Positions 2,033-36,300 of a stretch of DNA of 64,000 nucleotides are shown in pieces. The translations under genes were made by a program, and so were the position numbers. Below the pieces are notes generated by a model, which had not been told where the DNA came from, did no database searches, and was given only the letters and a program-made list of their open reading frames with translations. Source of the stretch: an uncultured Candidatus Poseidoniales archaeon (GTDB lineage: Archaea > Thermoplasmatota > Poseidoniia > Poseidoniales > Thalassarchaeaceae). Every line of letters begins with the position of its first letter. The first letter of the stretch is position 1. The stretch is from assembly GCA_964343205.1 (NCBI GenBank), contig CAYFID010000001.1, positions 10,835 through 74,834 on the forward strand. Direction: 5' to 3'.

Positions 2033-2205
2033 TCGCACACCGTATTGCAATTTTCTCGTCTTGATGGATTTATCATGCTGATGGAGCGCCGTTCGGACAT
2101 AGATCTTTGTACCAATGTCCGAGAGTCACGCGTTATAAGAAAATCACTATAATTGGGGTCAAGATTATGGATTGTTTCAAAGGGTGTTTAGATTCGGGTT
2201 TTGTC

Positions 2206-5550: not shown

Positions 5551-5593
5551 CCCTCAGGCCCACTCAATAATGTTAGTAGCATCTGGCAGCAAA

Positions 5594-8500
5594 TCATTCT
5601 TGGAAATCGGGATCCGGTACCCATTCCTCCGTGGAAGAGTCCCAAAGCCACCCCGGATGGTCATCATACTTCTCAAGACTAGTTTCTTTCTCAATATTAT
5701 CCCCGTACCCTTCTGGGATCTCCACAGGAGTCTTCCGTAAGTCCTCATCCTCGATTTCGATTCCTACGAAACCGCTGAAGTAGGCTAGAGCGGTAAGAGC
5801 GAGGACTGCTGAGAATGCTAAAACAATGATCATCGACCAGTTAGTGGAAGAATCCACTGGTTCTCCCTTGCTAATTGATTCGACGGTGGTTGTCTGGCCG
5901 CCATATGTGAATTGGGGAGTTGAAGAGTCTCCCTTAATCCTTGATCCTGGAATACCCAACTCCCATGTTCCGTCTTCTAATACAAGGGTAGTAGCGACTG
6001 GGACGCCTCCGATTGATACCGTGACCTGCTTTCCAGGCAGTCCTACGCCGGAGTAGATGGCATATTCTTCTTCATCAAACCAATTCTTTTCGGGTTCCTG
6101 GATGTAGAACTCAAGAGGAACTACGCGAAATGTCACAGGGTCAGAGTTTGCCCTAGAGTCCCATGCATCTGTGGCAATGAAAATTACATTGTTAAGTGTC
6201 CATGACTCGATATTATCGTCGAAGAACTGCATGTCAGCTGGATCGTATCGTGCTACCCCATCAGTTCCTACACCGACAACCAGGGCATGGCGGTCGTCAG
6301 TGTTAATCGATGTGTCATTGTAAACAGAGATAAACTGGATGTCATTATCCAAATCAGAGAAGAAATCCTTTAGATCTATCTCAACAGTTGTACACTTGTC
6401 TACGGAATTTGACTCTGTGTCGCAATATAGTATAATTTCGTTTTCCCAGCCTGTTGAGTCGAATGTCGGTTGGTTATTTCCTGCGTTGGGTGGATTGTCT
6501 GCGGTAATTGTTACCTCCACCCAGCCACTGAAGTCTATCCCATCGTAGGATCTGAACCTTAGCAGATACTCAGCATCATGGCGTAACTCAGTAGTGTCCC
6601 ATTTCATTTCCCATTCGCCGTCTTGGGTGAACTCACCAATGCTCTGCTCGAATACTGTCACGTAGTCGTTTGAGACATCCTTGACTTCTAGATCGACCCT
6701 AGTAACGATCCCGTCGAAATCCCTCGCAACACCTTGCAATATGGTTTCAGTAGACGTAGAAATTCTGGTTCCGGAGTATGGTTGGTTGACGCTGATTGTG
6801 GGTTGACTGTTCCGGTTGTCTATGGTCAAAGTGAGTATGACGGGTTGGCACTCATCCGTGAATCCGTTGCAAAAGTCTGAGTCGGATGCCCAGATTGTGA
6901 ACGTGTATGTCGATAGGTCTCTGGGCCTAGATCCGAAGTCCCACGTCCATTCCCAAGTTCCGTCCTCGTTCGACTCAACTGGAGTGGTAACCTGGTAGTT
7001 CGGGCCCTCAATCAACATATACACCAAACCGATGTCTTTGTTGCATTCAGATGGGCAACCATATGGGTCCTGAGCATATCCTTCGAAAACCACTTCGCCG
7101 CTGTCGTGAGAAGAGAATGAGCTGGGTGAATTGACGAAAATACTTGGAGGCTGGGTGTTGAGTTTTATTGTCCTCGACACCACTGGACTGAAGTCTATCC
7201 CATCGTAGGATCTGAACTCAAAGGTATAGTCCCCTTCCCCTGCCAAACCGGTTAGATCTATTTCATAATACCATGTTCGGAAAGGTCGGTTGTGCCTAGT
7301 TACCTCTCCCTCGGAAGCACCGCTAGTGTCGATAGCAAGCTCTGCGTCCTCCCAAGAGCTTGTGAACGGGTTCTTCACTTGCACGGAGTGAACGTACCCT
7401 CCTTGGTCCCACTGAGCCAACTCGTCTGTGGCATAGCTGTTTGCCAACTGACCGTCATGGGCACTACCGGTGATGTTTACAACACGCCGGAAGGAGTGAC
7501 CATTATCTTGAGTAACCATCACCTTCGGTGCTACGTTCTCCAAGTGTGCAGTTTCCTGCAAAGAGGCCTCTTCTAGGGTGAATTCGCCATTATAGTACCC
7601 ATAACCGAACCTATAGGCAGTGTACCTGTAGAGGGACATCTCCCTGGTCCCAGCCGAGTAGTCGCAGCTTGGATCATTGGTGTCAATGACCAAATCTCCG
7701 TCATTGTCTATCCCATCAGAGCATGAGTCTTCGTACTCATCATCAGCGAATCCATCAGGATTGTCTCCGCCTCCGAGACCTCTGAAGTCAAGATGGAAGT
7801 TTGATGGTAGAGCAATCCAAGGAGTGAAGCCATCAGTTCCAGTGTTTACTCGGTACAGGTCGTTCCCCATAGCGTCCTCTACCAGTACCATAGCATCGCT
7901 TACCTTTTCACCGTTTATCAGAGCTTGAAATCTAACCAGCTCCGCCCTACTGACCTGGACGGCGAAGTGGGTGGGCTGAGTAGCAATCTTGACCTTTGAA
8001 AGATCAAGGTTAGTTAGGTCTGCGAAAGTGAACACTGTGGAGTTGTTATCCATGCTAACACCAAGAGGGAAGTTTCTGGGAGTCATGTTTTGACAATTGT
8101 TGCAGTCCTTAACCGGAGTGGGGATAATCGCCCCTTGGAAACCGTTCTCAGGCCATGCCTCTTGGTCTGGCCAATAAAGACGAACGGGATATTCTCCCGA
8201 CGGTGGAGAGGGTATGTACTCAGATTGGGCCGTTACTGAGCTCTTGGTGATGTTGTAAGTTGTCTCGACTTGGTGCCAGTCATTATCTGAGAAGTACCCC
8301 AGAGAGCCAAATTGCTGGGAATCTGAGTAACCGCTGTCATAATTCTTGATTACTGCTCCGGTCTTCGGGACGTCAAAGGAGTTTCTCTGTATATCGAGAA
8401 GAGACCCGATGGCCCTTATACCATCTGAACTTCCGCTAGCTGTAATGACATTGTCATACATTGTTACCCCCGTGACGTAGGCATGAACAACTGGACACGG

Positions 8501-9862
8501 GAATTGCCCGCCCCAGTGAGTATTGCTGTTGCAAGTCCCAGTTCCGTCATATGAAATGGAGTTGTTTGCTAGTAATACCCTCGATGCAGATCTCATCCCT
8601 CCACCAGAGTAATACCCTGCACTCACGGGAGTTAGGGTTGTCTCGAAAATTGAGTTGTTCTCTGCAACAACATCGAATGAGCCCACGAGCCAAAGTCCGA
8701 AGTAGCCGCCTACAGGCCCGATCGCGTTTTCGTGAATTTGTGCCTCGCTGTTGTAAATAACGATGCCTGACCCCCCACCAGCGCCTTCAATGTCGTTGTT
8801 CATCAGAGTAACTAATGCTCCTGCCGCTGCGTAAATACCATGACCCTCTACGGTTGTGATTTCGTTGTTGGAGACATCGAAACCGAAAGATGTCGAGCCT
8901 ACGGCCTTCTTTCCGTTGAAGTCCAAGCCGTTGCAGTTGACGTTCATCACAGTGTTTGTTACACTCCCTGCTGACGTCCAGAGGCCTATTCCGAAGTCTC
9001 CAGATAAGATCTCGGCGTTATCAATCTCTATGAAAGAGTCCTCGGCCCAAATCGTGGCCCTTCCACCATCACGATTACCGCATCCATTATCTGTCCCAGT
9101 TAATGTGATGTCGGATAGCAAGAATGGGCTAACTGAAGAGCCAGATGAGTAGATTTGTAGTGCTGCTCCAACTATGCTTCTACTCTCATCCACCCCAACG
9201 GCGAATTGGCCTCCATTGAATGTCGGCTGGGCTAGATTAGTTGTTAGCACGCTTGAAGTGTTTACCTGGCTGAAAGATAACTCGGTGAGAGTGGGGCTAG
9301 CCCCGTCAAGAACGAGTGCCGCGTAGCGGAACTCCCCTACTGCTGAGATGTAATGCGGAACTCCCCACGCACCCTCGAACGAAACGTACCTCAACTCAGT
9401 CTGGGACAGATCGATGGAGCTCCTCATTAGAATGCCCTCATTGCAGGAAGGATCATCGATCCAAATCTCCTGATTGCCATAGCTCATCCCATAGCATTCC
9501 CCTGTTGCACTTCCGTTCTCAGGGTCCTGCCATGTTAGAGTGATTTGCATCGCAGGGCCCCCGTTGGAGGAGGCGCCACAAGATGAGGCCCCGGCACAAA
9601 GGCTCCCGCGAACATCAAGGTGAGTCCCGTTCTGGAAGACAATAGTTGCTCCGGGATTGATGATCAGCTTAGCCCCGGGTGCAACAGTTACGTCGCCCGA
9701 GAGGGTGTGGACTCCGGCCCAGGTTTCTGTTCCGGTAATGGTGCCCTGGGTGGTTTCGTTTGAAGCAATGGCCGTGCCGGCGGGCAAAGCAAGCGAGAGT
9801 AAAATACTGAGCAAAAATAATGCCGTCAATGAAAGGGACCTTGGTCTTCCGTCCCGCGCCAT
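5594..9862 (-). CDS. Cell-surface protein with a right-handed parallel beta-helix (pectin-lyase-fold) region and Ig-like domains. Signal peptide plus C-terminal TM anchor with an acidic tail.
   Basis: Signal MARDGRPRSLSLTALFLLSILLSLALPAGTAIA; the start is probably the ATG at 9862 rather than the ORF start at 9913. Beta-helix repeat signatures NNSI, NNDIEG and GIVIYNSEAQIHENAIG. C-terminal TM MIIVLAFSAVLALTALAYFSGFV followed by an acidic tail. Confidence 0.7.
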   Translation of the reverse strand: MARDGRPRSLSLTALFLLSILLSLALPAGTAIASNETTQGTITGTETWAGVHTLSGDVTVAPGAKLIINPGATIVFQNGTHLDVRGSLCAGASSCGASSNGGPAMQITLTWQDPENGSATGECYGMSYGNQEIWIDDPSCNEGILMRSSIDLSQTELRYVSFEGAWGVPHYISAVGEFRYAALVLDGASPTLTELSFSQVNTSSVLTTNLAQPTFNGGQFAVGVDESRSIVGAALQIYSSGSSVSPFLLSDITLTGTDNGCGNRDGGRATIWAEDSFIEIDNAEILSGDFGIGLWTSAGSVTNTVMNVNCNGLDFNGKKAVGSTSFGFDVSNNEITTVEGHGIYAAAGALVTLMNNDIEGAGGGSGIVIYNSEAQIHENAIGPVGGYFGLWLVGSFDVVAENNSIFETTLTPVSAGYYSGGGMRSASRVLLANNSISYDGTGTCNSNTHWGGQFPCPVVHAYVTGVTMYDNVITASGSSDGIRAIGSLLDIQRNSFDVPKTGAVIKNYDSGYSDSQQFGSLGYFSDNDWHQVETTYNITKSSVTAQSEYIPSPPSGEYPVRLYWPDQEAWPENGFQGAIIPTPVKDCNNCQNMTPRNFPLGVSMDNNSTVFTFADLTNLDLSKVKIATQPTHFAVQVSRAELVRFQALINGEKVSDAMVLVEDAMGNDLYRVNTGTDGFTPWIALPSNFHLDFRGLGGGDNPDGFADDEYEDSCSDGIDNDGDLVIDTNDPSCDYSAGTREMSLYRYTAYRFGYGYYNGEFTLEEASLQETAHLENVAPKVMVTQDNGHSFRRVVNITGSAHDGQLANSYATDELAQWDQGGYVHSVQVKNPFTSSWEDAELAIDTSGASEGEVTRHNRPFRTWYYEIDLTGLAGEGDYTFEFRSYDGIDFSPVVSRTIKLNTQPPSIFVNSPSSFSSHDSGEVVFEGYAQDPYGCPSECNKDIGLVYMLIEGPNYQVTTPVESNEDGTWEWTWDFGSRPRDLSTYTFTIWASDSDFCNGFTDECQPVILTLTIDNRNSQPTISVNQPYSGTRISTSTETILQGVARDFDGIVTRVDLEVKDVSNDYVTVFEQSIGEFTQDGEWEMKWDTTELRHDAEYLLRFRSYDGIDFSGWVEVTITADNPPNAGNNQPTFDSTGWENEIILYCDTESNSVDKCTTVEIDLKDFFSDLDNDIQFISVYNDTSINTDDRHALVVGVGTDGVARYDPADMQFFDDNIESWTLNNVIFIATDAWDSRANSDPVTFRVVPLEFYIQEPEKNWFDEEEYAIYSGVGLPGKQVTVSIGGVPVATTLVLEDGTWELGIPGSRIKGDSSTPQFTYGGQTTTVESISKGEPVDSSTNWSMIIVLAFSAVLALTALAYFSGFVGIEIEDEDLRKTPVEIPEGYGDNIEKETSLEKYDDHPGWLWDSSTEEWVPDPDFQE

Positions 9863-9940
9863 ATGCCTTGGACTCCATCCAGCCAATTTAACCATAGGGA
9901 CGACGAGTATCATCCTTAAGCATAGATTTCGATAGGAAAA

Positions 9941-11176
9941 CTACTCAATCCCTAATTCGAGAGACACTTGGTTGGACCACTCTAAGGCATCTAGAAGGCC
10001 GTAACCGGACTTTGAGTCGTGGGTGGAGGCTTGGTTGGATGCTGGTCTTGCAGAATTTGCCAGGGCCACCTTGACTAAATTCATTTCCTGCTGGTCAATT
10101 ATTCCATCTTCACCGGAAATCGACTCACCGTGGATGGAGAGAATCAAAGCAAGTGCCCCTGCGACGATCACTGTTGAGTCGCTAGTTCCCGTGGAGTAAG
10201 CGTATGGGGGCTCTCTGTCGTTAGAGATACAAGACCAAAGTAATACACCGGGAGCTAAAATCTCTGGCTTCTGATTGGGGAAAGAGCGGTCTTCTCCCGT
10301 TTCTGGATCTATGGGGGATCCTTTCGCGCTGTCCCCCCATGGATTACCACCTTTGTCATGGGCACCTACAGCGATAACACCTGGAAGACTAGCCGGTGTA
10401 GAAACATCAGTATTGTTGGATTGAGGATCGCTGTTACCTGCAGCTGCTACGACAAAAATTCCATCATCTAGGGCCTCTTGAACTGCTTCTACGGTCTCTG
10501 ACGTGGAAGTAACTCCCGACCCAGGTTGGCTTCCTAGGCTCAAGGAGATAACATCGGAACTCTGTGAGATCCTGCACCATCTGATAGCCTGCGAAACCAT
10601 CCTCTCGTTTCCCGACTTTCCGTCCGGCCCAAGAGCTATAGCGACAGAGAGGGAGACTCCGGGAGCTGCTCCCCTGTAAGTCCCATTAGCTACAAGCAGT
10701 CCAGCCATCAGAGTACCGTGGCTATCGTATCCGATGTCTCTAATCTCATCGTTCTCTTCTAGGTAGAAATCTCGGAACCCATGTAGTTTCAACATGGAGA
10801 AGTCGGGGTGGGAGATATCTATGCCAGTGTCGACTATACATACGCGAATACCTTCACCAAGAGTTCCGGTCGATTGTAGGCCCCTTATGCCGCTATCCTC
10901 GTATGCCCATTCAGAATCTGGTAGTACTTCACCGAGTAGCGGCGCTATAGAGGGGTATAACATGATGAACGACAATATAATCGCCGAGAATCCTACAGCA
11001 CCCCATGGCCAGAGGAACCTGACAATCGGACCCATTGGCCACCTGAGTTCCCTGGCTTCCTTGTCGCTGATACCATAGGCTTCCCCCGGATATCCGGGTG
11101 CATCGCTGTCGACGGCAGTCAAGAGGCTAGGATCTTCGGGTTCTGGCATTAGTTCCAAGTGCTGGATTCCCCTCAT
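9941..11176 (-). CDS. Subtilisin-like serine protease (peptidase S8) with an N-terminal membrane anchor
   Basis: Catalytic triad motifs in order: Asp in VCIVDTGID, His in HGTLMAG, Ser in GTSDSTVIVAGALAL; oxyanion Asn in AAAGNS. N-terminal hydrophobic segment FLWPWGAVGFSAIILSFIMLY. Confidence 0.8.
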   Translation of the reverse strand: MRGIQHLELMPEPEDPSLLTAVDSDAPGYPGEAYGISDKEARELRWPMGPIVRFLWPWGAVGFSAIILSFIMLYPSIAPLLGEVLPDSEWAYEDSGIRGLQSTGTLGEGIRVCIVDTGIDISHPDFSMLKLHGFRDFYLEENDEIRDIGYDSHGTLMAGLLVANGTYRGAAPGVSLSVAIALGPDGKSGNERMVSQAIRWCRISQSSDVISLSLGSQPGSGVTSTSETVEAVQEALDDGIFVVAAAGNSDPQSNNTDVSTPASLPGVIAVGAHDKGGNPWGDSAKGSPIDPETGEDRSFPNQKPEILAPGVLLWSCISNDREPPYAYSTGTSDSTVIVAGALALILSIHGESISGEDGIIDQQEMNLVKVALANSARPASNQASTHDSKSGYGLLDALEWSNQVSLELGIE

Positions 11177-11211: not shown

Positions 11212-14200
11212 TTAGAACGGGGCGCTAATTCTTCTTCCAGGCCTTCTAGTGAAGTATAGTAAAGCAACTAATAGTAGGATGATGAAAACATATGCCATGT
11301 ACTTGAGATTGTCATTATCCACTGAAGCCGCCCACAATTGTGCCTCGTAGACACACGAAGCCTGGCCTTCGGAGAGAGAGTTGCATGCCTCGATTTCTTC
11401 TAATGGCTCGCCTTCTATTTCGAACATGATGTAATACTTCTTTGACTCTTCGAACTGGGTGTAATCCATGTTGATGAAGAAGGCTGATTCGCTCATTGCG
11501 AAAACCGAGCCGGAGGAGCTGGAATTGACTCCAACCTTAGTCAGGCATTTGATATCCTCGCAGAGTGTGGCAAGAAGGGTTACGGTTTCTGCGTCAACAT
11601 TTCCGGAGTTTGAGATGTTAACCGAATAAGTCTCGATTCCTCCATAGCTGGCGAAAGAGCCTCCAAGGAGTCGTACTGATTCCCCTACAATCGATAGAGA
11701 AGGGGCGTCCAAAACTATAGTAGCTTGGAATGGATATGAGTTGTTTGATGAGTCAGTAACCGAGAAGTGAATGGTTTCTGTGTAGTCACTGAGTAGTTCT
11801 TGCTCCGAAACAGGGACTAGGGTGAATGTAGACAGACCATCCGTGAAAGGTGAAACTGGCTGGGTCATTGGACCTGAGACTTCCCAATAATCGGAGTTCT
11901 CGAATTGGAAGTAGAATGTCTCGTCGGCGTTTCCTAGATTCTTGAACGGGACCTGAAGTGGCACAATACTATCACTTGGAGAGAAATATACAATCTCTTG
12001 GAATTCCTCGGAAAGCTCTATTCCAGATGTTTTCGGTATGCCCACGGTCAACTCCGTCTGCGTCGAATATCCTTGGATCGTTGAAAATTTAACTAGGACC
12101 ATATGACCTTCGGGGAAGTGGTGGGCAACGCTACTGTTTGCTGGTGTAACCCTGACATTGATAGTCGAGGTTTCTACATTCTCTAGGCCCATGTCGAAAG
12201 AAATTGACTCCTGCCAGTCGCCGGTTGAGTTCTCGAATTCGACCTTCCAGAAGATTCCATCCATTCCAGGTACTGTACCCGTAACCACGTATGTGTCGAA
12301 GGAGTTGTGCCCTTCATAATCAATACTCAATGTGAATTGAGCAACCTCATATTGGCAGTCTTCCAAGCAATCTGAGTCCGCCAGTACTACGTCTATTCTA
12401 GGTTGTGAGGAGGTTGAAACGGCTATGTCTTGCTTTGAAACCCTCTCTATGCTGAGTGTCTTCACTGGAGTGTCTTGGCCAGCTCTGATAGTGACTCCTT
12501 GCCCGCCAGAGTAAGTAACGTTCCTGCCATCCTCATCGAGATCAAACTCACTTGAAATTTGTACAGTTCCAGTAACAACGAGCAACGATAGAGTGCCGTC
12601 CTGGTTCAATTGCTCAGACCAGGACATGCTGCCGAATTCGACTACTAGATCGTAGTCTTCTATCTCGGAAAGTTGGTGCTCCGCTCCGTTGAAGTCTATC
12701 CACTTGGTGTCTAAATTCAAAACCCCACCTATCGTTAGTTCGGATTCTATCGATGCGCCTTCGACACCTACCTCCAAGGGGGAAATCGAAATCAGATTTT
12801 GGCAATCTGAAGATTGGGCGTCTGTATATGCATATACAACCCAACTACCTGGTTGAACGGATGAAACCCATCCTCCGGTCCAAATAGAGGAGTTACTAGT
12901 CTTGATGACAGTGACTCGGTCACGGGAAATTCCATGCGTCGGTATTAGGACAACCTCCCAATCACCGTTTGAGATGCAAGCCTGGTCCGGGTAGGAAACA
13001 TGTCCCGAGACTTCAACCTCGCCTGCAGTGATTTCGATATCTTCAACCACAGATTCGTTACCCAATTCTACTGACAGAGTAACATTTCCGAATCCTTCCC
13101 TAACTACGAATAGGTCCCAAGAACTCTGTGCAGGGAGGAATGTTGACCATTCCCCGGTGGAACCAGTCACCAATTCATGAGTAGGGGGTGCAAATCCGGG
13201 ATTTTCTGAAGAGAGGTTGACCGTCGCGTTACCTAGGCCTTCGAAGAAACCGGGAGAGTCGTCGTCGTCTAAGTCCCAGAAGACCCGACCACTTAGTTGA
13301 ACCAGCCTCTGCACCGATAGAGTAACTTGGTGGTCCACTCCAACAGTTACCCCTGAGTCGACTAGCGAGGTGTTCTCGAGTAACATCCTGATGCCGTCTG
13401 GGTTGGTCTCATTCATCTCAACGTTCCACTGTCCAGGAGTAAATCTGACCTCCAGAGGCAGCCCTAATCCAAAGTATTGCGTAGAGAAGGAACCTAGTCC
13501 CTCTTGGGATGTGAAAGTGAGTTCCATCATCTCCAGATCGGGACCTCCCCCTGTACTGGAATTCAACTCGATGGTGACGGTTGCTAGTTGTGAAGTATAG
13601 AAATCGTATGTGCTATCAGCTGTGGACTTGGAAACAGAGATTGCCCTTCTCAAGCCTTCGTGAACTCCTGAATTGCTCTCAAATTCATCGATGATGACCA
13701 CCCATTCACCTTCGCTGATGTAATCCACAATCCGCCCATTCTCATCGGTAATGAAAGTCTGAATCCATCCGCTATTAGTGTCTAGCATTGTGACTTGGTG
13801 GTTCACCAAAAGATCCGCACTCTCGTTCCTGAATGTTATGTTTACCAGCCAAAGAGGCTCGAAACCGACGGATCTATTGATTTCAGATGGGTCTAGCCCG
13901 ACGTCGAAAATCTTGTTTATGTCGTATAGAGTATCGAAGAGTTCTCCGGCGGAGGAGTTTGCTCTGTCGACTACAATCCTGTACTTTCCTGGCTCCAGAG
14001 AGACCTGTGCCCTTCCATCAGAAACCCATTCTTGGCCGTCTAGACTGACTGAGTAGCCCGACCCGTTAGAAGTAAGAGGCTTGATCTGGAATGGGTATGA
14101 TACGGGTGTTCCGTTGGATACGTTGTTTTCTCCATCGTGGTCTATGAAAAAGTCGATATTCACGGTACTGTTTTCCTCTGGAATGATAAATAGCTCTATG

Positions 14201-17200
14201 TCCACCGAGGAGTTGATCTCACGGATTACAGAGCTTGATCCCATTTCACCTGCATCTAGTGTGAAGGACCAGTTCCCGAGGGGCAGTAGCATCTCGAACC
14301 TACCAAGTTCGTCGACCTCGACCCGCCAGACGGAGTCAGTATTTCCGTCCATGTTGTTTGCATGAGCATAAACAGGACGCCATCCCGAGAAGCCCTGGTT
14401 GTACGTGTTTCCTTCTCTGTTGAGGCTAGCACTTCCGAAGATTACCATGGCATTCCTAAGTTCGATGCTGATGTCGTCCATTCCCTCTGTGACTTGGAAC
14501 CTTGTCCCATTAGACATGAATCCACCTGCTCCAACCATCCTCTCAACTGTGGCGTCCACGAAGGCCCCAAGAGGGAGGATTACACTGAAGTTCCCATTTG
14601 AGTCGGTTGTTGAAGCAAGAGAGAATCCACCCCATTGGAATGTAATGTCCTGGAACGCCACAGGGCCTCTGGAAGTTTGCAATTCGGGAGAGTCCTTGTT
14701 GGAACTATCTATCACACTTCCATTAACAACTTGGCTAACAAGGAACTCGAATGAGGAGTTGATATCCTCGGTGCCTACACTGATTCGTTGCCATAGTTGC
14801 TTTTCTTCGTTAAGGGTGTGGTTCAAGACCCAAATTCCTGGTGAGAGTTCGGCAAAATATGATCCAGAAGTGTTGTCGAAGGATACGCTCACAGGTTCTA
14901 TAGATTGGTTCTCGGATCGGAATTTCAATTCTAGATTCTCGACGCTTTCATCTCCATCTGTGAGGGTGAATGTGATGTCAGAGGTCTGTGGTACTACAGA
15001 CGGGAATGCTGCAAGTATGTCTTGGTCTGATTCGAAGATGTAGGTCTCCGAAATCTCTGGGAATCCATCATCGTCCACGTCCACCTGGACTAGATATGAA
15101 CCGGGGATTATGGGTCCAATCTCGAATGATCCATCTTCCTCAGGAAGAACGGAGCATGGGGGAGAGACAACAGTGCTACATTCGTGCAGAAATTCTTCTG
15201 AAGAACTGTTGATTGGGAGAATAATGAGCTCACTTGAAAGTGGGTCTCCTGAGTGAAGGGAGACAGCTCCCTTGACGGCTCCACCGGAAATTGATACAGG
15301 AATCTGAGAGTTCGATGGATTTAGAGGGATCTGGAAATATTCACTCAGTTCTACAACAATGCCACCTCCAAAGTCTACAGATACAGAGTATTCCCCAGGT
15401 AGGGCGTCAACAATATGGAAAGAACCCGGACTGACCATGGGGCCACTGAAAACCCCATCTCCAGAGAATGTTCCTGATCCGTTTATAGTGCCGTAGGAAT
15501 CAAGGTTTTGGGATGAGTCTGTTACGAATGTTCCGGATCCGATGAAGGTAGCTTGGAATAGGCTTCTTGTGTATTCGCTGACACCTTCAGAGGTAAATCT
15601 CCCAGATGCGTTTAACGTGCCGTTGACTAGGTAGATTCCATCATCAAAGGAACATGCTTGAGAGCCGTTCGGTACCTCGTTATCCATACATTCTGGGACA
15701 GTGTCGGAGATTTCCCCCTCTAGCGTCCCGCGACCTGTGAATTGTCCGTCACCGGCAATACTGTGGTTGTCGTATATTGTCTGGGTGTGGGTACCTGTGA
15801 ATTCGCTTACTGAGGCAGCCCCCTCGGAAACTACTGTACCATTGCCATAGAATGTAACCTCTCCGAGACCAGTGAATCTCAGAGATTCGCCCTCTAAGCT
15901 CCCATTAGAGGTTGAAGTCACATAGGGCTGTATCGTGATCTCATCTGAGGTCGGCGTGAGTATCATGTCTGCTGAGAGAACTGGTTCACCATCGAAGTCA
16001 AGTTGGCCTGACCATGAAAGTACCCCTGATGCAGCGGAAGGTGAAACGGTGATTGAAGCATCAATTATCGATTGTCCGTTACTGTGACCATCTGTGCGAG
16101 AAATGTTAACTATCGTATGGGTGAGCCAAGTGGACCCGTAGACGTTTCCTAGAATCCCAGTCACTGGATTTACATTCCTGTTCTGCGGATCCTCTGTGAA
16201 GAGCTCACTCATCGCATAGCCCATTCCCGTCATAATCGAGGTTCTCGCTTCTTCCAAGTCGGTTTCTCCTGAGAATGCAGAAACTCTAATCTTGCCAGAC
16301 GGGACGGTGAAGGAGAATTTCCCATTCTCATCTGCTTGGGTGCTTCCTATAGGGATCCAGAATGTCCTAGAGTCGCGGTCAATTACATTTCCTTCCAAAT
16401 CCACATCCTCTTCCCCACTGAAGGCATCCCTCTCTATCAGCAGCCTAGCGTTGGGTACGGGTCCGATCCCATCAAGAGTTACAGTGCCCTCAACTGTTGC
16501 ACCGCTGTAGTATTTCAGAATCTTTACGAACCTGTTGGAGTCGTACACAGTACCGCAATACTGATCCAGCTTCGCCCCTGTCTCGTTAGTTTCACAATGG
16601 GCACCATCAGTGGGATCGTACCAATTAGAAATCACGAAATGGTTCATCATGGCGCCGGGTAGTGACATAGCACCCTCCAGGTAGCTTCCGGGGGATCCTG
16701 AAAGAGCACTTGGAGCAATCCACGCTGAAGGGGAGTCTGCATCGCCAGCAATTCCCCCTGGAGAGTCGAGGCCAAGAGAGGATGTCCCGTAACCTACGTA
16801 GGCTCTAGCAACCATGGTTTCGAAGAACTCGGCGGAATGCTGGTATTCGATATCGTTGATTGCAATCATTTCATCTGCGGTTGATGCTCCTGATGCCTGG
16901 GATCTAATATCCTCCAGATAGCTTGCCTGATATTCATCGGAGGTCATCATTCCCTGGTTTGTCTCGTATGTTGTGGTAATGTATGTGTCAAGGTCCAGTC
17001 CAGACAAATGAGTAGGTGCGTGGAAGATTCCAGTTGTTTGGCCTCTGTGGTAGCTCTGATAATCCGCGTTATACTTGCCACCCAGAGGATAAAGCCTGTT
17101 GTCAACAGCGAAATATCGAATCTCGTGGTTCCTAGTTGTAATGCCACCCTCGTAATCTGTCACTTCGTATGTGTCAATAGAGGAAATTCCATCATAAATA

Positions 17201-20200
17201 TCCACAAGTTCGTTAAGTTCGAATGCAGTAATCAAGAAAGCTCGCATCATCCCGAACTTTGCATTGGCCCTGTGTAGCCCGGTCGAGATGTCGTAGTAGT
17301 CCTCGAAAAGGTCTTTTGTGTATCTATATCCACCCATGTCATAGTGACTGGGATCTTCCATAATTTCGTATGATGAGGATGATCCTCTTGCCTCGTCGAA
17401 AAGTGACTTTGCAGCAGATTCGTTCGTGCTTGGTTCTCCGTAATTCTCACCATCCTTCAAAACTAGCCAGACCTCGTCAGTTTGAGGTATTCCGTTATTG
17501 TCCAGCAAGTGACCATGGAGTAGTTCGGTTGAGCCATATACCGCCTGTAGTGCCATTGTCCTGTCCATAACAAACTGTCTACAACTATCGCAATTACTAT
17601 TCGAGATGATTGCAGAGAATTCTTCAATCTGTTCTTCCGTCATTGAGGACTCCAGAACAACTCTGAAATCTTCGCTCATCTCTCCACCATTCAAGTTTCT
17701 ATCACCTAAAGCAAGCGTGGCAATGAACAAAGATAGTGTGTCCTCCTGACCTGCCGATAATAGCATAGCTCCGCTATTTGGTATGCCTGATTGGAAGTTA
17801 TCAGCAACGGTCGGATGTTGCCCCGAAGTAAGTGCTTGGAAACCATAATCCCACCAAGAGACAAATGCCGGTCTTTGGCTGAACGGAGTAGAATTATCCT
17901 GCTTCGACAGCCAGTCGTAGGCTTCATTCCATCCTTGTGTGTTGAAGCTAGGGCCGAATGTCCCCATGTACCAATGCCCAGTTTCAAACGGTTCGTACGG
18001 ATTGCTGTTCATCACAGAAAACAGGTTGAAGAAGTCCTGCCTAAGGATGTCTGGAGCGATGTCATATATACTCTGGTCAACTTCATAGGCGGACTGCTCG
18101 CCCCTCGGGATTCCAGAGTCTATTCCGTAAGTGGCATGCTGAGAGCTGATGAGGAGAAGAACCAGAATCATTGCTGGAACTCCAGGTCTTGACTTGGTAG
18201 CAGGCCAGAGAGATCTGAATCTTGTTCTCGGAGTTCCAATTCCTGAGTTCCTCCATACCTTGGAAAACGCTGAGAAGTTTGAGCTCCCCCATAGCATCGA
18301 GATGCCTATCCCGCCAGCTACTGCCATGGGTGGGGTCGCGTTGATTATGAAACGGCCAGCGGTCCATGCCATGTAGGTTGCGATAATGGTCCAAAGGCCT
18401 AGTAGAGTGAGACCGGACTTGCTCTTCCTGCTTCCCCTCCAAAGAAGAACGAAGGAGCACCCTATTGCTATCAAGGCTACAATAGGTCCGTACGAAGCGA
18501 ATAGAACACCTCTGTCGGGAGCCTGTGCCTCTCCGATGGTACCGAAGATCTTGTTCTTAGAGAAATAGAAACCTCCGGTGAAAAGAATATCCCAGCCAGC
18601 GTAGATTTCTGTAACCTGAAGTAAAAACAGTAGGGCCAGAATGGTACCAAAAAGTGCCGAACCCCCCATTACAACCAGTAGCCAGGGCTTATCTCTGAAG
18701 GAGCTAGATACCCATCCCACTGCGAATGTGAAGCCGATAATGTAGAACATTGGTTGCATTCCACTTGGCGCAAATAGAAGGTTCATTCCGGGCCAAGCAT
18801 AGAATGGGATGGGGATGATGATTGAAGAAATCATCATCTGAAGAGCCGCGGAAGTGAATTGTAAGCTGTCCTTTCTACGGAAAATGTTGACTGCCACTTG
18901 GAATGAGTATGCTAGGAATAGTATTCCAGGCCCATATACGAATCCCTTCCAACCCAGAGCCATCACTGCGAAGGCTATTCCGGACATGGTTGCGTTTGCC
19001 ATTAATGCAGGATTTCGCTGCCATGTGTCCCTCATTCCAGCCAGTATGTACAAGGGATTTGTACTGGTCTTCTCAAAGACCTCCTTGTGCTCTAGATTTT
19101 CAAGGGCCCTCATCCAGAAATAGAACGCAATTGCAAGGAACAACATCGCGAAGGAGTCGTGATCCGACATTGCGAATGTTGACCGGCTCATGTGTCCGGG
19201 CATCAGTGCTATCAGCCAAGCCGCGAAAATTCCCGAACGCTTGCTGTGAGCCCTTGTCGCGATTCCTGCGATTGGGAGTACGATCAGTGCACCGTATATT
19301 GCTGGGAGGGCGGACATTGACCACCATACTGCTTGGTCCGGTGAGATCTCTAGTAGCCAAGAAAGCGCGAGAGCGCCTAGTGCCAGAGACCACGAGAAAA
19401 GGGGTGGCCTCGGGTTAATGCCCCCTGAGGGGTAAGCCCTATCATGATCGAAAATTAAGTGGCTTCTTTCGGCGATTACGTAGTCCACGACCCGTTTCAT
19501 ATACCATGGGTCAGACCCGCCAGTCATGTCCCAAAGACCAGTTCCAGAGGCATTCATTGCTGGAATGACATTCCATGCCGTCCTGACAACGAGTGCGACA
19601 ACGAATGCAAGAGACACCATCATGATGTAGGAGTTCTCGTCCCACCAAGTCCGGAATCCGCTTCTATCCCTTCTAGGGGCAATGTCACCGAAGGCCCCTC
19701 TTGATGCGAAGAAGATTGCGAAGAAGTTCAGCCAGAAACCAAGGAAAAACCAGGTAAATGATCCAATGAAGCCTGTCTCAGAGAATAGAGAGGGAAGCTC
19801 ATTTCCAATCTCGTGGAGGTGCCCAATAGTGTATAAAATCCAGTTTATTGCCAGCATAGAGCTTAGCACATGCCACCCCTCTGCCCTGAAAAACGAAAAT
19901 GTAAGTACTACGAAAGCCGAGAAAAGTGCCCATACCACTCCGAGATGGCTTCCTTGAGCGAATTCGGCGAGGTCGCTAATCTGCCCCACCCAAATCACAG
20001 GTATTAGGAATCCTATGAATATCAATGAGGGATATGCCAAGACTTCCTTGTTTTCAGTAAATAGTGGAATCCTGGAAAACAGCGACCCAGTGCTCCTCTC
20101 TTCCAGAGTCCCCCGAAGCAAAATCATTACCACAAAACCCAAAGAAATCGAAGCAAGCCAGAATGAGAAGAATGCACTCCCTAATGAGGCCCTTTGAACG

Positions 20201-20688
20201 TCCAATAGGGCTGAGGATGCGGATTGGGCAATTCCTAGGTGAGCCCCATAGAACCCGGCGAGTCGAATCCCCAGTATTGTGGAGAGGAAAACTGAGGATG
20301 CTTCAAATTTCCCAGATTCATGCAGAATCGCAGTTCCCAAACCTATGATCACAAATGTTGCAACGAACATGTTGTCGAAATTTGATGGATCGGACCAGTT
20401 CGCGACTAGTGAAATAACCAGAAGAGTAATGGAAAGGGAGATAACTCTCATTGTTCCAGAATTGATAGGGATTATTGATGTTGACCTGCCTGCGCAGGCT
20501 GGCAACATCGCAGAAAAAGTAATCAGAATGGATGCGGAAATGTACTCGCTGTCAACTTCTCTTCCTTCTAGTTGAGAAGCAGCAATCAGCAGCCCCAGCA
20601 GGGAAAGTGAGATTGCGATAGGCACTCCCATTCTGGATACAAATTGGCTATCCCCAGATGCTTCAATCTCAGTTTCCATCCCATCCAC
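11212..20688 (-). CDS. aglB: Giant (3158 aa) AglB/STT3 oligosaccharyltransferase fusion. Extra N-terminal polytopic membrane domain, STT3 catalytic core, and a roughly 1900-aa extracellular beta-domain extension ending in a C-terminal TM.
   Basis: STT3 EL1 motifs DPWYMKR (about 19505) and FDHDRAYP..NPRPPLF (about 19441), which match eukaryotic STT3 DPYFNYR and FDDRAWYPLGR. WWDYG motif in PAFVSWWDYGF (about 17846). DK-like motif TVADNFQSGIPNSGAMLLS downstream. The C-terminal extension contains carboxypeptidase-regulatory-like and Ig-like repeats and ends with the TM YMAYVFIILLLVALLYF. Confidence 0.85.
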   Translation of the reverse strand: MDGMETEIEASGDSQFVSRMGVPIAISLSLLGLLIAASQLEGREVDSEYISASILITFSAMLPACAGRSTSIIPINSGTMRVISLSITLLVISLVANWSDPSNFDNMFVATFVIIGLGTAILHESGKFEASSVFLSTILGIRLAGFYGAHLGIAQSASSALLDVQRASLGSAFFSFWLASISLGFVVMILLRGTLEERSTGSLFSRIPLFTENKEVLAYPSLIFIGFLIPVIWVGQISDLAEFAQGSHLGVVWALFSAFVVLTFSFFRAEGWHVLSSMLAINWILYTIGHLHEIGNELPSLFSETGFIGSFTWFFLGFWLNFFAIFFASRGAFGDIAPRRDRSGFRTWWDENSYIMMVSLAFVVALVVRTAWNVIPAMNASGTGLWDMTGGSDPWYMKRVVDYVIAERSHLIFDHDRAYPSGGINPRPPLFSWSLALGALALSWLLEISPDQAVWWSMSALPAIYGALIVLPIAGIATRAHSKRSGIFAAWLIALMPGHMSRSTFAMSDHDSFAMLFLAIAFYFWMRALENLEHKEVFEKTSTNPLYILAGMRDTWQRNPALMANATMSGIAFAVMALGWKGFVYGPGILFLAYSFQVAVNIFRRKDSLQFTSAALQMMISSIIIPIPFYAWPGMNLLFAPSGMQPMFYIIGFTFAVGWVSSSFRDKPWLLVVMGGSALFGTILALLFLLQVTEIYAGWDILFTGGFYFSKNKIFGTIGEAQAPDRGVLFASYGPIVALIAIGCSFVLLWRGSRKSKSGLTLLGLWTIIATYMAWTAGRFIINATPPMAVAGGIGISMLWGSSNFSAFSKVWRNSGIGTPRTRFRSLWPATKSRPGVPAMILVLLLISSQHATYGIDSGIPRGEQSAYEVDQSIYDIAPDILRQDFFNLFSVMNSNPYEPFETGHWYMGTFGPSFNTQGWNEAYDWLSKQDNSTPFSQRPAFVSWWDYGFQALTSGQHPTVADNFQSGIPNSGAMLLSAGQEDTLSLFIATLALGDRNLNGGEMSEDFRVVLESSMTEEQIEEFSAIISNSNCDSCRQFVMDRTMALQAVYGSTELLHGHLLDNNGIPQTDEVWLVLKDGENYGEPSTNESAAKSLFDEARGSSSSYEIMEDPSHYDMGGYRYTKDLFEDYYDISTGLHRANAKFGMMRAFLITAFELNELVDIYDGISSIDTYEVTDYEGGITTRNHEIRYFAVDNRLYPLGGKYNADYQSYHRGQTTGIFHAPTHLSGLDLDTYITTTYETNQGMMTSDEYQASYLEDIRSQASGASTADEMIAINDIEYQHSAEFFETMVARAYVGYGTSSLGLDSPGGIAGDADSPSAWIAPSALSGSPGSYLEGAMSLPGAMMNHFVISNWYDPTDGAHCETNETGAKLDQYCGTVYDSNRFVKILKYYSGATVEGTVTLDGIGPVPNARLLIERDAFSGEEDVDLEGNVIDRDSRTFWIPIGSTQADENGKFSFTVPSGKIRVSAFSGETDLEEARTSIMTGMGYAMSELFTEDPQNRNVNPVTGILGNVYGSTWLTHTIVNISRTDGHSNGQSIIDASITVSPSAASGVLSWSGQLDFDGEPVLSADMILTPTSDEITIQPYVTSTSNGSLEGESLRFTGLGEVTFYGNGTVVSEGAASVSEFTGTHTQTIYDNHSIAGDGQFTGRGTLEGEISDTVPECMDNEVPNGSQACSFDDGIYLVNGTLNASGRFTSEGVSEYTRSLFQATFIGSGTFVTDSSQNLDSYGTINGSGTFSGDGVFSGPMVSPGSFHIVDALPGEYSVSVDFGGGIVVELSEYFQIPLNPSNSQIPVSISGGAVKGAVSLHSGDPLSSELIILPINSSSEEFLHECSTVVSPPCSVLPEEDGSFEIGPIIPGSYLVQVDVDDDGFPEISETYIFESDQDILAAFPSVVPQTSDITFTLTDGDESVENLELKFRSENQSIEPVSVSFDNTSGSYFAELSPGIWVLNHTLNEEKQLWQRISVGTEDINSSFEFLVSQVVNGSVIDSSNKDSPELQTSRGPVAFQDITFQWGGFSLASTTDSNGNFSVILPLGAFVDATVERMVGAGGFMSNGTRFQVTEGMDDISIELRNAMVIFGSASLNREGNTYNQGFSGWRPVYAHANNMDGNTDSVWRVEVDELGRFEMLLPLGNWSFTLDAGEMGSSSVIREINSSVDIELFIIPEENSTVNIDFFIDHDGENNVSNGTPVSYPFQIKPLTSNGSGYSVSLDGQEWVSDGRAQVSLEPGKYRIVVDRANSSAGELFDTLYDINKIFDVGLDPSEINRSVGFEPLWLVNITFRNESADLLVNHQVTMLDTNSGWIQTFITDENGRIVDYISEGEWVVIIDEFESNSGVHEGLRRAISVSKSTADSTYDFYTSQLATVTIELNSSTGGGPDLEMMELTFTSQEGLGSFSTQYFGLGLPLEVRFTPGQWNVEMNETNPDGIRMLLENTSLVDSGVTVGVDHQVTLSVQRLVQLSGRVFWDLDDDDSPGFFEGLGNATVNLSSENPGFAPPTHELVTGSTGEWSTFLPAQSSWDLFVVREGFGNVTLSVELGNESVVEDIEITAGEVEVSGHVSYPDQACISNGDWEVVLIPTHGISRDRVTVIKTSNSSIWTGGWVSSVQPGSWVVYAYTDAQSSDCQNLISISPLEVGVEGASIESELTIGGVLNLDTKWIDFNGAEHQLSEIEDYDLVVEFGSMSWSEQLNQDGTLSLLVVTGTVQISSEFDLDEDGRNVTYSGGQGVTIRAGQDTPVKTLSIERVSKQDIAVSTSSQPRIDVVLADSDCLEDCQYEVAQFTLSIDYEGHNSFDTYVVTGTVPGMDGIFWKVEFENSTGDWQESISFDMGLENVETSTINVRVTPANSSVAHHFPEGHMVLVKFSTIQGYSTQTELTVGIPKTSGIELSEEFQEIVYFSPSDSIVPLQVPFKNLGNADETFYFQFENSDYWEVSGPMTQPVSPFTDGLSTFTLVPVSEQELLSDYTETIHFSVTDSSNNSYPFQATIVLDAPSLSIVGESVRLLGGSFASYGGIETYSVNISNSGNVDAETVTLLATLCEDIKCLTKVGVNSSSSGSVFAMSESAFFINMDYTQFEESKKYYIMFEIEGEPLEEIEACNSLSEGQASCVYEAQLWAASVDNDNLKYMAYVFIILLLVALLYFTRRPGRRISAPF

Positions 20689-20739: not shown

Positions 20740-20768
20740 AACCGTTCGTAGAACGGTTGCAATATAGG
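20740..20768 (-). promoter_or_regulatory. Candidate promoter/operator of the aglB block. TATA-like box (minus strand CCTATATT, 20760..20768) abutting a perfect 8-bp inverted repeat AACCGTTC-gta-GAACGGTT (20740..20758).
   Basis: The inverted repeat was read directly from the sequence. It lies about 50..70 nt upstream of the aglB ATG (20688), between the TATA-like element and the expected start-site position. Confidence 0.4.
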
Positions 20769-33335: not shown

Positions 33336-36300
33336 TCACTCGTCTGACTCGAGTTGCAAGGGGCCTCTAGTAGGCATTTCCTGAATTGCTTCTATCTCCT
33401 GAATTACTGAAGAGAGGGCCAGCTGTGCGTTGTCCCTGTGTGAGTCCCCAAGGACGTGACTAGAGTATCGGGCCTCTTCGAATATTCTGTCTAAGGAAAT
33501 CAGAGAAGCCTCGCTGATAGGGAGTGCTTGCCTGATTGCGGATTCGAACTCTCTGACCGTTTCGAAATTGCGGCGCAAGAAGCTCCTTCTCATCAACACC
33601 GAACAAAGATTCTGGTAGCACAGGAAAATCGCCTTCCTGTACTCATCTCCGGAGGCCAGCATCTCGGCGGTCTGACTGAATACGCTGGCAAGTTCCTTAA
33701 TAGCGGATTTCCTCCTTGTATTCACCAGCATGGCGCCGATGGACAAAGCCGCAGCAGCAGCCAGTAGAGCTCCAATTGCAACCGTAGCGGATCCGAAGAG
33801 AGATCCCGAATCTTGCTCCTCGTAATCTATCTGTACCCCTCCAGTTGGCAACACGGCTAGGCTTCCAGGGTCGATGTATTCAGAGTCGGACCCAATCATC
33901 ACGCTGAGCCTGCCCCATGAAGACAGGTCTGATAGTGGGGGCATGGGTGCTAGAGACTTGAACTCGTAATCGAACACCCCCTCTGAGCTCGTTAGCTTGG
34001 ACATTGAGAAGTGTGAGGTGCTTCCATTCAGAAGAATCGCCGTCATGGACAAGCCCTCCATGGGCTCCCCTGTGTCCTTTGCAGTTACGTTTACAGTCCC
34101 CCTAATCACCCTCTGTCCTATTGATAGTTCTAGATCCGATAGGACGAATTCAACCTCGACCAGAATCATGACATCTACGTCCTTCGATGCCCCGTTGAGG
34201 AATCTGTCCTGATCGGATTCCACCGCTATTGTAATCGTGTTTTCTCCCGGGTGCATGTATTCTTGGGCCTTTGCCCTGATTTGGAAGTTCATCGTGTTCG
34301 GGTTGTCCCATGGCCCCAAAGTAGTTGGAAGAGCTGAGTCACCCCACCACAGCGTCATAGTCAGATTTCCAAATATTGCAGAGTCGCCCCCGACTTCCCG
34401 TATCAGACCCTGAAGCATTATCGAACTCGAAGGTGAGGGATCTCCTCTTACGATCGTGTTGGTTATTGGCTGAATCTCGATTACTATGTCAGAAAGGGCA
34501 AAGACCGTGAGCACAGAGTCTGTTGGCAAGTAGAGGAACTCGCCGCCATATTGGAAGGTGACATTGTGGGACCCGCGACTGAGGGAGTACTGGACTCGTT
34601 GGGAATAAGAAAACAGTCCCCCGGCCTCAGTGATTACAGTTTCCACAATTGAGCCATCTAACAGCACCAAGACCTCCCTGCCGTCCAAGCCCTGTTCGAA
34701 TCCGGTGTCCGATTCGAACAAGCGTCCGGTGAAGTTCCACTCCCCCCCTCTGGTGGCGTACACTTCCTCGACTTGTAAAGAAATAGACGTGTGGTATGAT
34801 ACGGTGAATGATGATTCAGTGCTACCCTGTCTGTAGAAACCCTGGGCTGGAGAGACTGCAGAAACTGAGTGATTACCGATTTCCATGGACTCGGGCAAGG
34901 TCCAGTTTAATGACCAAGTTCCATTGTCTACAGAGCTGGCCATTCCCACAAGCAGCCCGTCCACGAAAACCTCGATTGTATGGCTGCCTAGCCAGCCATC
35001 CTCTAGATTGTCCTTTACCCTGCCCGAGATCGTAAGAGTATCGCCAACTGCTACTGGGTGGGGTTCTTCAATTGTAACGAAAACCGGGGAAAATACGGTA
35101 AATACTACTGAGGAGTTTGAAGGAAGAACGAATTGCTCTCCTTCGTATGACACCTCAATAAGTAGAGGGCCTAGGTGCATGTCTGGAGAGATCGGTACAA
35201 AGGCAGTGAAGGAGCCGTTACCAGCTACTGACAAGGATGTTAGTTCCTCTCCGTTAATTGTCAGCACTAGCTCCCTGTTGGGTAGGGCTCTACCGACCCC
35301 ATCTGTTAGCATACCCTCGATGAGGGCAACCTCTGATCTGTCTATCTCACCTGGAGGGGTGGAAATCACTATTTGTGAAGTCTGGGTGACATTGAATCCC
35401 ACGGAATCAGATGAGCCAATGTAGTACTCTGGGTTGATTGAGTCCCCTTGGCCCATTGGGTCGACCCATGAGAAACCCCCTAGGAACTCGACTCTAGCAG
35501 TGTGCAAACCGAATTCCATGTCCGCGGGAATCTGGAATGTTATCGACCACTGGCCAGTGGTTGCGTTGGAGACAGTCGTGTATGAAGGACCAACATCTAT
35601 ACCGTCAATATACAGGTGGATAAGCCCCCCGAGTGGGTTCCCGTCATCCTTCAGTGGCTGTCCTCTCTCGTCCATTAGCGAGCCAATGAGTGTTACTGAA
35701 TCCCCGGCAATTGACGGAGAGGACGCCTCCTTCAATGTCAAGACGGTGGGGGCCAAAACGATTACGCGAGTCCATGTCTCGTCACCAAGGAGTCCAATTG
35801 ATCCATTTATCCCAGAGAATGTGGCGTTGACCACCATTGGACCGGGATCCCGGTCATCCCTAACTACGATGGAGGCAGATGCGAGCCCATCAGAATCCGT
35901 GATGCCCCCCCATACAGTGACGTTGTCAATCTTGACGATTAGGGTAGCGGATTGGAGAGGGGTTCCTGAGTTGTCAATTATTGAGAGATTTATGTCAAAA
36001 GATTCCCCTCTTAACGTTCTGCTGTCCGAGTCTAAATCGTCGGGGCTCTCGATTGTTAAGAATGAGTATCCTCTGCTGTCGAATGTAGAAAATCCTGAGG
36101 CAGAGGTGAAGTAAGTTACCTGAGGGGTGAAGTCTACTTCGATAGAATGAGGGCCTCTGGGGAAAGAAAGTTCCAGTCTGATTTGGGCTATCCAGGTCCC
36201 ATCAGATTGGAATGAGACTTGAGGGACGGTGAATGTGTCTGTTTCGCCATCTATCGTAAATGTCAGAGTTGGGTTAAGTGCGTTTCCTGTTCTGTCCGTA

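Follow-up and report, generated by a model that had tools for sequence, protein, structure and literature searches.

An AglB-type oligosaccharyltransferase of Poseidoniales with a giant beta-sandwich ectodomain and an additional membrane module

Archaeal N-glycosylation has a single enzyme that is universally conserved, AglB, an ancestor-like relative of eukaryotic STT3; the characterised AglBs are known as single-domain-architecture proteins of roughly 600–1,050 amino acids (aa). The best structural reference, A. fulgidus AglB-L (AfAglB-L; 3WAJ/5GMY), has a GT-C membrane domain, the motifs DPWY (in external loop 1, EL1), D-x-D/H, TIXE and WWDYG, and a C-terminal transthyretin-like sandwich. 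Marine Group II (MGII) archaea are among the most abundant archaea of the surface ocean and are uncultivated; we know of no description of their cell envelope. Here, we analyse a stretch of 64,000 nucleotides (nt) from an uncultured Candidatus Poseidoniales archaeon of the Thalassarchaeaceae (contig CAYFID010000001.1, positions 10,835 to 74,834; hereafter the window), in which one open reading frame (ORF) on the minus strand, 11212..20688, encodes an oligosaccharyltransferase (OST) of extraordinary length. Judged by its sequence, the product is an AglB/STT3-type N-oligosaccharyltransferase with intact catalytic motifs, and it is possibly the main OST of the source archaeon, which probably belongs to MGIIb. 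It shares with AfAglB-L all of the features listed above; unlike the 875-residue 3WAJ chain, it comprises 3,155 aa and adds a module of 10 transmembrane (TM) helices, an insertion of ~190 aa past WWDYG, ~1,650 beta-sandwich residues and a second membrane anchor.

We read this protein, with a probability of about 0.6, as a functional AglB that carries a fixed-length, glycosylated, doubly anchored envelope rod together with an accessory membrane module specific to Poseidoniales. A full-text literature search found no paper describing a giant AglB of Poseidoniales or Thermoplasmata. One study of field metatranscriptomes reports transcription of an aglB gene of an MGIIb MAG and counts aglB with the genes whose transcripts were more numerous in samples containing an active MGIIb genus; it does not mention the size of the gene (PMC9723583).

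The giant gene and its catalytic core

The frame runs for 3,158 codons without interruption to a stop codon at 11212–11214, and the base composition is uniform over the region. The first in-frame ATG, at codon 4 (nt 20679), is the probable start, and the resulting 3,155-aa product is 100% identical to a database protein (P0001, present in NCBI and Tara data). Among species-level Poseidoniales orthologues whose ORF is not cut by a contig end, 52 of 53 hold an intact ORF of 3,124–3,335 codons; these loci come from the top 80 of a scan with one genome per species, which detected at least 494. The sole exception (L067, JAURCP010000005.1) has an ORF of 2,697 codons with its S8 protease gene ~1.5 kb beyond; a frameshift, decay to a pseudogene or faulty assembly may account for it.

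These counts bear directly on the possibility that a frameshift, a case raised by an earlier sequence-only reading of the window, or a chimeric contig had joined a normal aglB to downstream surface-protein genes. Apart from the one shorter ORF, nothing was found in favour of such an assembly or annotation artefact, and the identical uninterrupted architecture recurs in independent metagenome-assembled genomes (MAGs), single-amplified genomes and metagenomes of many projects. With 52 of the 53 uncut loci intact, the artefact was rejected, and we hold it to be almost certainly wrong.

The catalytic core was identified by profile and structure matches. Pfam STT3 (PF02516) covers aa 391–794 (47.7 bits against a cut-off of 24.5), and NCBIfam TIGR04154, the archaeosortase A system-associated OST subfamily, aligns with aa 356–1007 at 157 bits, which is below its 450-bit cut-off. 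The closest solved structure is that of AfAglB-L (3WAJ), matched at E 3.4e-8 with the single sequence and at E 1.1e-32 with a profile, query aa 356 pairing with chain residue 17. EL1 contains GGSDPWY (aa 390–396; GGNDPWY in AfAglB-L) and FDHDRAYP...NPRPPLF (aa 413–431), and the catalytic aspartate of the former, D393, equivalent to AfAglB-L D47, is kept in all 53 orthologues. The second metal-binding motif, DHD, lies opposite the D-H-H of AfAglB-L (SDHDSF versus NDHHIW) and is nearly invariant in our three alignments (A1, A2 and the phylum-wide A3). The TIXE motif of EL5 appears as TIGE, paired with TIAE of AfAglB-L, with T378 and E381 invariant in A3; WWDYG, likewise invariant in A3, was found in 53 of 53 orthologues. 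Throughout Poseidoniales and the wider family, the catalytic residues vary little or not at all, even in alignments reaching down to 25–30% identity.

Behind the membrane domain, the soluble AglB domain (60–74% identity over Poseidoniales) shows AglB_core-like and 3VGP/3VU0 matches at aa 917–986. It holds the lineage-specific insertion of ~190 aa after WWDYG and a highly conserved block, IRYFAVDNRLYPLGGKY and LPGAMMNHFVISNWYD, which is common to the 2,000–2,800-aa relatives described below. Past the insertion, in a region that no alignment covers, DNRLYPLGGK (~aa 1196–1205) is, on comparison by eye with AfAglB-L, a candidate DK motif.

The overall anatomy proposed by the sequence-only reading, in which an intact OST core is preceded by extra TM helices and followed by a giant beta ectodomain with a C-terminal anchor of its own, is borne out by these and the following results. 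For the core itself, the EL1 motifs and WWDYG lie where they had been placed; the DK-like motif claimed alongside them could not be confirmed before aa 996, and the DHD motif had been omitted. Coordinates of all features are collected in Table 1.

Table 1. Position of the giant OST, its parts and its downstream neighbours in the window
Feature	Position (nt)	Strand	Basis
Whole giant OST ORF	11212..20688	-	Uninterrupted frame; probable ATG at 20679; P0001 100% identical
Additional N-terminal membrane module, aa 1–345	19654..20688	-	10 predicted TM helices; N-terminus inside
STT3/AglB GT-C membrane domain, aa ~346–857	18118..19653	-	PF02516; TIGR04154; 3WAJ; TM1 ~353–371, last TM ~838–856
EL1 motif DPWY (D393)	19501..19512	-	AfAglB-L alignment; all 53 orthologues
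Metal motif DHD, aa 509–511	19156..19164	-	AfAglB-L alignment; A1–A3 conservation
EL5 motif TIGE, aa 717–720	18529..18540	-	A3 invariance; AfAglB-L TIAE
WWDYG, aa 945–949	17842..17856	-	Invariant in A3
Extracellular AglB soluble domain, aa ~858–1395	16504..18117	-	3VGP/3VU0 matches; Poseidoniales conservation
Beta-sandwich extension, aa ~1396–3125	11314..16503	-	Pfam; all-beta AlphaFold2 model, aa 1397–1990; Foldseek; profile match; sequons
CarboxypepD_reg domain above Pfam cut-off, aa 2484–2548	13045..13239	-	42.3 bits versus 32.3; E 1e-10
C-terminal TM anchor, aa 3128–3146	11251..11307	-	Hydropathy 2.29; present in 54/54 full-length orthologues
Short basic cytoplasmic tail, TRRPGRRISAPF	11215..11250	-	C-termini of orthologues compared
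S8 subtilase, N-terminal signal-anchor TM aa 55–81	9941..11176	-	Pfam; starts 35 nt past the OST stop codon
Beta-helix/Big_7 surface protein, 1,439 aa, signal peptide and C-terminal TM (type I)	5594..9913	-	Pfam; TM prediction

Membrane module, beta-sandwich extension and C-terminal anchor

Since TIGR04154 and 3WAJ both start at aa 356, the N-terminal 345 aa are additional to STT3. An AlphaFold2 (AF2) model of this module, built on a 25-sequence family alignment, contains 10 TM helices (predicted local distance difference test, pLDDT, 85.5; predicted TM-score, pTM, 0.84), and Lys and Arg residues in the predicted loops are distributed 10 inside to 1 outside. Because the number of added helices is even, TM1 of STT3 would retain its usual orientation, and the sum of 10 and 13 helices puts the soluble domain outside in the predicted topology. 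Sequence conservation is low over the first ~200 aa (26–44% identity) and high over aa 230–349, a part that includes HLHEIGNELP (aa 290–299) at the predicted outer face; the best-conserved residues of the module are found in the last four helices and on that face.

The sequence-only reading had placed ~350 aa with ~10 TM helices outside the STT3 fold, in agreement with the model, and had named as its own counter-case that this region was the canonical STT3 membrane part behind a mis-called start. We reject the latter: profile and structure matches begin at ~aa 353–356, the 2,000–2,800-aa relatives lack the module and their alignments begin at their own residues 1–160, and hhalign assigned a probability of 0.4% to a match of the module with the STT3 membrane domain, as well as to a match of one half of the module with the other. 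Neither Pfam nor NCBIfam returned a match to the module, and Foldseek found none in the PDB at E≤0.001. A hidden Markov model of the module had no hit within ±10 kb of three Thermoplasmatota relative loci or elsewhere in the window; further afield, its hit lists are saturated by the giant family. As modelled, the module may therefore be a fold without a recognised relative, specific to Poseidoniales.

One alternative assigns this module the role of the small membrane subunits of eukaryotic OST and makes the ectodomain a substrate-handling scaffold which, like the lumenal accessory subunits of that enzyme, would cooperate with the catalytic site, selecting substrates or keeping nascent secreted polypeptides held or shielded close to it. 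The module does match DAD1/OST2, but designed helical bundles listed beside it match at least as well; Foldseek gave nothing significant. Furthermore, a local chaperone would need nothing like a rod of ~1,700 aa that is anchored in the membrane a second time, and characterised AglBs, as is established for single-subunit archaeal OSTs, function without a rod. The extra size and the second anchor thus disfavour a purely local catalytic helper, and we regard the scaffold as unlikely.

The extension that follows the soluble domain is a non-repetitive series of ~15–18 transthyretin-like (CarboxypepD_reg) and Ig-like beta-sandwich domains, CARDB/DUF11-like at its end; this count is an estimate from length, as searching for the sandwich hairpin with a simple regular expression finds some of the domains only. 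The copy of CarboxypepD_reg listed in Table 1 is the single one above the Pfam cut-off, with several weaker copies elsewhere in the extension. An AF2 model covering aa 821–2020 of the ectodomain is all-beta and confident over aa ~1397–1990 (pLDDT 80–92), and Foldseek relates the extension part of the model to the tandem-sandwich pilins and adhesins TIE, RrgB, SdrD and BcpA (E 1e-9 to 1e-6). In the phylum-wide profile, AfAglB-L residues 684–826, its terminal sandwich, pair with the first sandwich of the extension, which can accordingly be read as an elaboration of the ordinary last domain of AglB-L. Because that last domain corresponds to ~aa 1340–1480 of the giant OST, the true surplus is ~1,650–1,730 aa; the Ig-like and carboxypeptidase-regulatory-like domains of the sequence-only reading stand, and its length of ~1900 aa does not.

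The AF2 model also shows, with confidence, a series of beta-strands of unusual length (as many as ~40 residues) at aa 1598–1748 (nt 15445..15897), where a G-x-G-x-F-x-G spacing recurs and Cys pairs are conserved. As modelled, this segment may form an elongated beta-ribbon differing from the surrounding sandwiches.

The rod inferred from this extension is predicted to be glycosylated. Between aa 1391 and 3125, 40 N-X-S/T sequons are present where 17.4 are expected (a roughly two-fold enrichment), and enrichment was seen in all 53 orthologues (observed/expected ratio 1.3–3.7, median 2.3). Sites are also conserved: in a set of 24 homologues, 27 of 48 are kept by half or more, and 12 (N1528, N1736 and N2192 among them) by 80% or more. 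Conservation of Asn is 0.58 in sequons versus 0.41 elsewhere. Cytoplasmic proteins of the window, unlike its two giant surface proteins, show no sequon enrichment. The second of these giants is a 2,991-aa ORF (33336..42311, minus strand) with matches to Transglut_core, TSP3_bac, Big_3_5, CarboxypepD_reg and DUF4129, an N-terminal signal-anchor and a C-terminal TM helix; its 79 sequons (30.3 expected) exceed the enrichment of the OST, and it is likely a major N-glycoprotein substrate.

The fold matches invite the reading that the ectodomain is an adhesin binding particles, algal surfaces or polymers, for which the OST core would be a mere membrane anchor. Like the pilins and MSCRAMM stalks of Gram-positive bacteria (RrgB, BcpA, the B domains of SdrD, B. 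anthracis TIE), which supply its best fold matches, the extension consists of tandem CnaB/transthyretin-like sandwiches, and large surface proteins are encoded next door. Unlike them, the giant OST is archaeal, fused to an enzyme and without polymerisation logic; global TM-scores are low (0.07–0.11), and its C-terminus, a TM helix with a basic tail, lacks an LPXTG sorting signal. Length and domain order are, moreover, nearly invariant over an order-level radiation: the Poseidoniales family alignment is almost gap-free, with 40–70% identity in the extension against 70–90% in the core. A BLAST self-comparison of the extension detected no internal repeats at E≤1, and both near-identical tandem repeats and a recognisable ligand-binding head domain are absent. 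Near-constant length, strict collinearity and the lack of repeat homogenisation disfavour a variable adhesin, and the strict conservation of the catalytic motifs speaks against a core that serves only as an anchor. An adhesin is, in our judgement, very unlikely.

In 54 of 54 full-length Poseidoniales orthologues the chain closes with a TM helix and a short basic tail whose last residue is Phe, so that the C-terminal anchor noticed in the sequence-only reading is universal in this set. A TM helix and basic tail also close all 70 C-termini listed of 2,050–2,900-aa relatives, among which a terminal Phe is uncommon. As the chain re-enters the membrane by this helix, with the basic tail in the cytoplasm, the ectodomain is anchored at both ends. 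No PGF-CTERM motif precedes the last TM helix of the giant OST (...DNDNLKYMAYVFIILLLVALLYFTRRPGRRISAPF) or of its Poseidoniales orthologues. A PGF-CTERM-like signal (PGFE, PSFE or PGFG, followed by a TM helix and a basic tail) was observed in eight relatives of 2,200–2,700 aa (P0143, P0154, P0158, P0159, P0169, P0189, P0218 and P0224), whose C-terminal anchor may hence undergo archaeosortase processing.

Distribution and gene neighbourhood

To describe the spread of this architecture, database proteins and genome loci were compared. A first database search returned 464 clusters, the best 120 of which are all 2,944–3,338 aa long and match over the full length, with identity down to 45%; the few that are named carry marine group II/Poseidoniales or broader Euryarchaeota/Thermoplasmatota labels. 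The genome scan gave 494 relatives or more. Its 80 best loci are all orthologues, nearly all labelled Poseidoniales or more broadly (Euryarchaeota, Methanobacteriota, Thermoplasmatota), and include both named families, Poseidoniaceae and Thalassarchaeaceae. A search of 1.84 billion representatives revealed a second tier of ~100 clusters, 2,000–2,800 aa long at 28–38% identity, whose names point to Thermoplasmata, Thermoplasmatota, Methanomassiliicoccales and Methanomethylophilaceae MAGs. Ten shorter STT3 entries were also checked, and the majority proved to be truncated or partial versions of 2,000–2,800-aa proteins.

Such lengths are therefore routine for AglB in the lineage (~3,150–3,300 aa in Poseidoniales orthologues, mostly 2,000–2,800 aa in the nearest others), an outcome that the sequence-only reading had named as one that would undo its claim of an unusual protein. 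The giant OST is not peculiar to the source genome; it is unusual against characterised AglBs and ordinary for its phylum. The Thermoplasmatota STT3 proteins of 2,100–2,800 aa resemble it in the core (28–38% identity), in the conserved block that follows WWDYG, in stretches of the extension that run collinearly, and in the C-terminal TM helix with its basic tail. They differ in lacking the 10-TM module and a conserved terminal Phe, in being ~400–1,000 aa shorter, in bearing, in several cases, a PGF-CTERM-like PGFE or PSFE, and in having no adjacent S8 gene in the three loci examined. Database labels of the giant and the 2,100–2,800-aa proteins range over hypothetical, STT3-domain, GT39 and "carboxypeptidase regulatory-like domain-containing protein". 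Two records bear labels that probably reflect contamination or mislabelling: an MGII-type giant OST locus (L059, JAOMAZ010000025.1) in a single-cell assembly named "Deltaproteobacteria bacterium AH-558-G13", and a Thermoplasmatota-type STT3 (P0336) named "[Eubacterium] cellulosolvens".

Gene order in Poseidoniales is purD, giant OST, a membrane-anchored S8 subtilase and a beta-helix protein. Upstream of the OST lie purD, present in 71 of 71 loci with room for it, and the CDP-archaeol synthase gene (CarS); the flanking genes are those of an archaeal chromosome. On the downstream side, the S8 gene comes directly after the OST gene in 52 of 52 loci long enough to show it, and is itself succeeded by the beta-helix gene in every locus extending far enough. 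A polyprotein reading draws on this arrangement: the co-transcribed, membrane-anchored protease would cleave the chain outside the cell into an AglB of normal size and a C-terminally anchored, glycosylated S-layer-like protein. The invariable adjacency (35 nt in the window), a catalytic domain of the S8 protein that is predicted to be extracellular, and surface proteins of the source genome that are type I with C-terminal TM anchors all fit such processing. Against it, the three Thermoplasmatota relatives examined possess the extension without an adjacent co-directional S8 gene. The whole neighbourhood, including the housekeeping gene purD and CarS, is also syntenic over Poseidoniales, and the S8–OST adjacency may for that reason be inherited and not functional. 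On balance, we consider a polyprotein improbable.

Other observations in the window concern the same neighbourhood. Between purD and the OST gene, ~50 nt upstream of the OST start, the two 8-bp arms of an inverted repeat enclose a loop of 3 nt (aaccgttc tac gaacggtt, minus strand; ~20740..20758). After the OST, a co-directional block (3013..11176, minus strand) comprises the S8 subtilase, the beta-helix/Big_7 protein and an HTH/AAA_16/TPR regulator, the last present in all three loci that were read to that distance (the window and the loci of P0081 and P0009); this block may be a cell-surface biogenesis operon. Elsewhere, at 27890..30799 on the plus strand, a 969-aa protein unites a response-regulator receiver with PPDK_N (PEP-utilising, ATP-binding), an unusual pairing.

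A proposed envelope rod on the enzyme, and what it would mean

The closest architectural analogue of the extension is the eukaryotic protein NOMO (Nodal modulator). A phylum-wide profile, which combines Poseidoniales with other Thermoplasmatota and is dominated by the latter, matches human NOMO2 (9C7V) at E 3.8e-33 over NOMO2 residues 126–861, ~700 residues in all; this match is as strong as that of the same profile to AfAglB-L, and the next structure that is not an OST reaches 24 bits. Like the giant OST, NOMO has a long array of prealbumin/transthyretin-like domains on the non-cytoplasmic side, followed by one C-terminal TM helix and a short tail. Whereas the array of the giant OST is fused to an enzyme, NOMO is a separate eukaryotic protein, a subunit of the BOS complex, that has a signal peptide and partners with Nicalin and TMEM147. 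A full-text literature search on NOMO in archaea did not find an archaeal counterpart, and Pfam scans of the giant OST reported none of the NOMO-specific families. A passage of PMC11186639, citing Amaya et al. 2021, reports that NOMO sets the spacing of sheets of the endoplasmic reticulum (ER).

The proposed explanation has three layers. In the first, a canonical GT-C OST with ~13 TM helices would presumably glycosylate Asn-X-Ser/Thr sites of proteins as they emerge on the outer side of the membrane, using a dolichol-phosphate-linked glycan as donor. In the second, ~15–18 distinct sandwich domains, probably heavily N-glycosylated given their sequons, would form a rod that returns to the membrane by the C-terminal TM helix and serves the cell envelope as a structural spacer or canopy element, as NOMO does in the eukaryotic ER, and not as a variable adhesin. 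Many other Thermoplasmatota have this layer too, at a total protein length of 2,100–2,800 aa. In the third, the 10-TM module would assist the OST as an accessory partner within the membrane, where it might dock either the C-terminal helix and tail or the lipid-linked donor. The idea that the enzyme extends into the surface canopy, or is part of it, is compatible with the constant length, the collinearity, the conserved and enriched sequons and the double anchoring.

Several results weigh against this explanation. A profile made from MGII sequences only matches NOMO2 weakly (19.8 bits, E 4.8e-4), and in the relatives the generic CarboxypepD_reg family scores far above the NOMO-specific Pfam families. 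Orthology to NOMO was downgraded on these two grounds, and NOMO is taken here as an architectural or superfamily analogue, not as a family assignment. The AF2 model, furthermore, is poor for aa 821–1395, the soluble OST domain modelled out of context, and its confident part ends at ~aa 1990, ahead of the remaining half or so of the extension (aa 1990–3125). Finally, the conserved adjacent extracellular S8 protease leaves room for cleavage after synthesis, which would undo the double anchor.

A bolder version of the envelope rod can be formulated, in which the giant AglB is a principal building block of the Poseidoniales envelope: a self-glycosylating hybrid of enzyme and envelope protein whose doubly anchored, NOMO-like rod sets the height of a glycoprotein canopy or pseudo-periplasm, and whose 10-TM module is a new fold that closes the arch, by docking the C-terminal helix and the Phe-ended tail, or handles the lipid-linked glycan. 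We consider this version unlikely and offer it as a speculation.

At the level of the lineage, AglB is three to four times as large as usual throughout a whole order, Poseidoniales, and a shorter form occurs in many other Thermoplasmatota. The surplus is a conserved, sequon-rich rod with a second membrane anchoring, which makes it a concrete candidate component of the envelope, and it is accompanied in Poseidoniales by a confidently folded 10-TM module without a known relative. The protein is also a natural "Rosetta-stone" fusion that joins an OST with a NOMO-type domain array. If this holds, the physical association of the N-glycosylation machinery and lumenal spacer proteins that is seen at the eukaryotic ER would have a prokaryotic precedent in this fusion across Thermoplasmatota.

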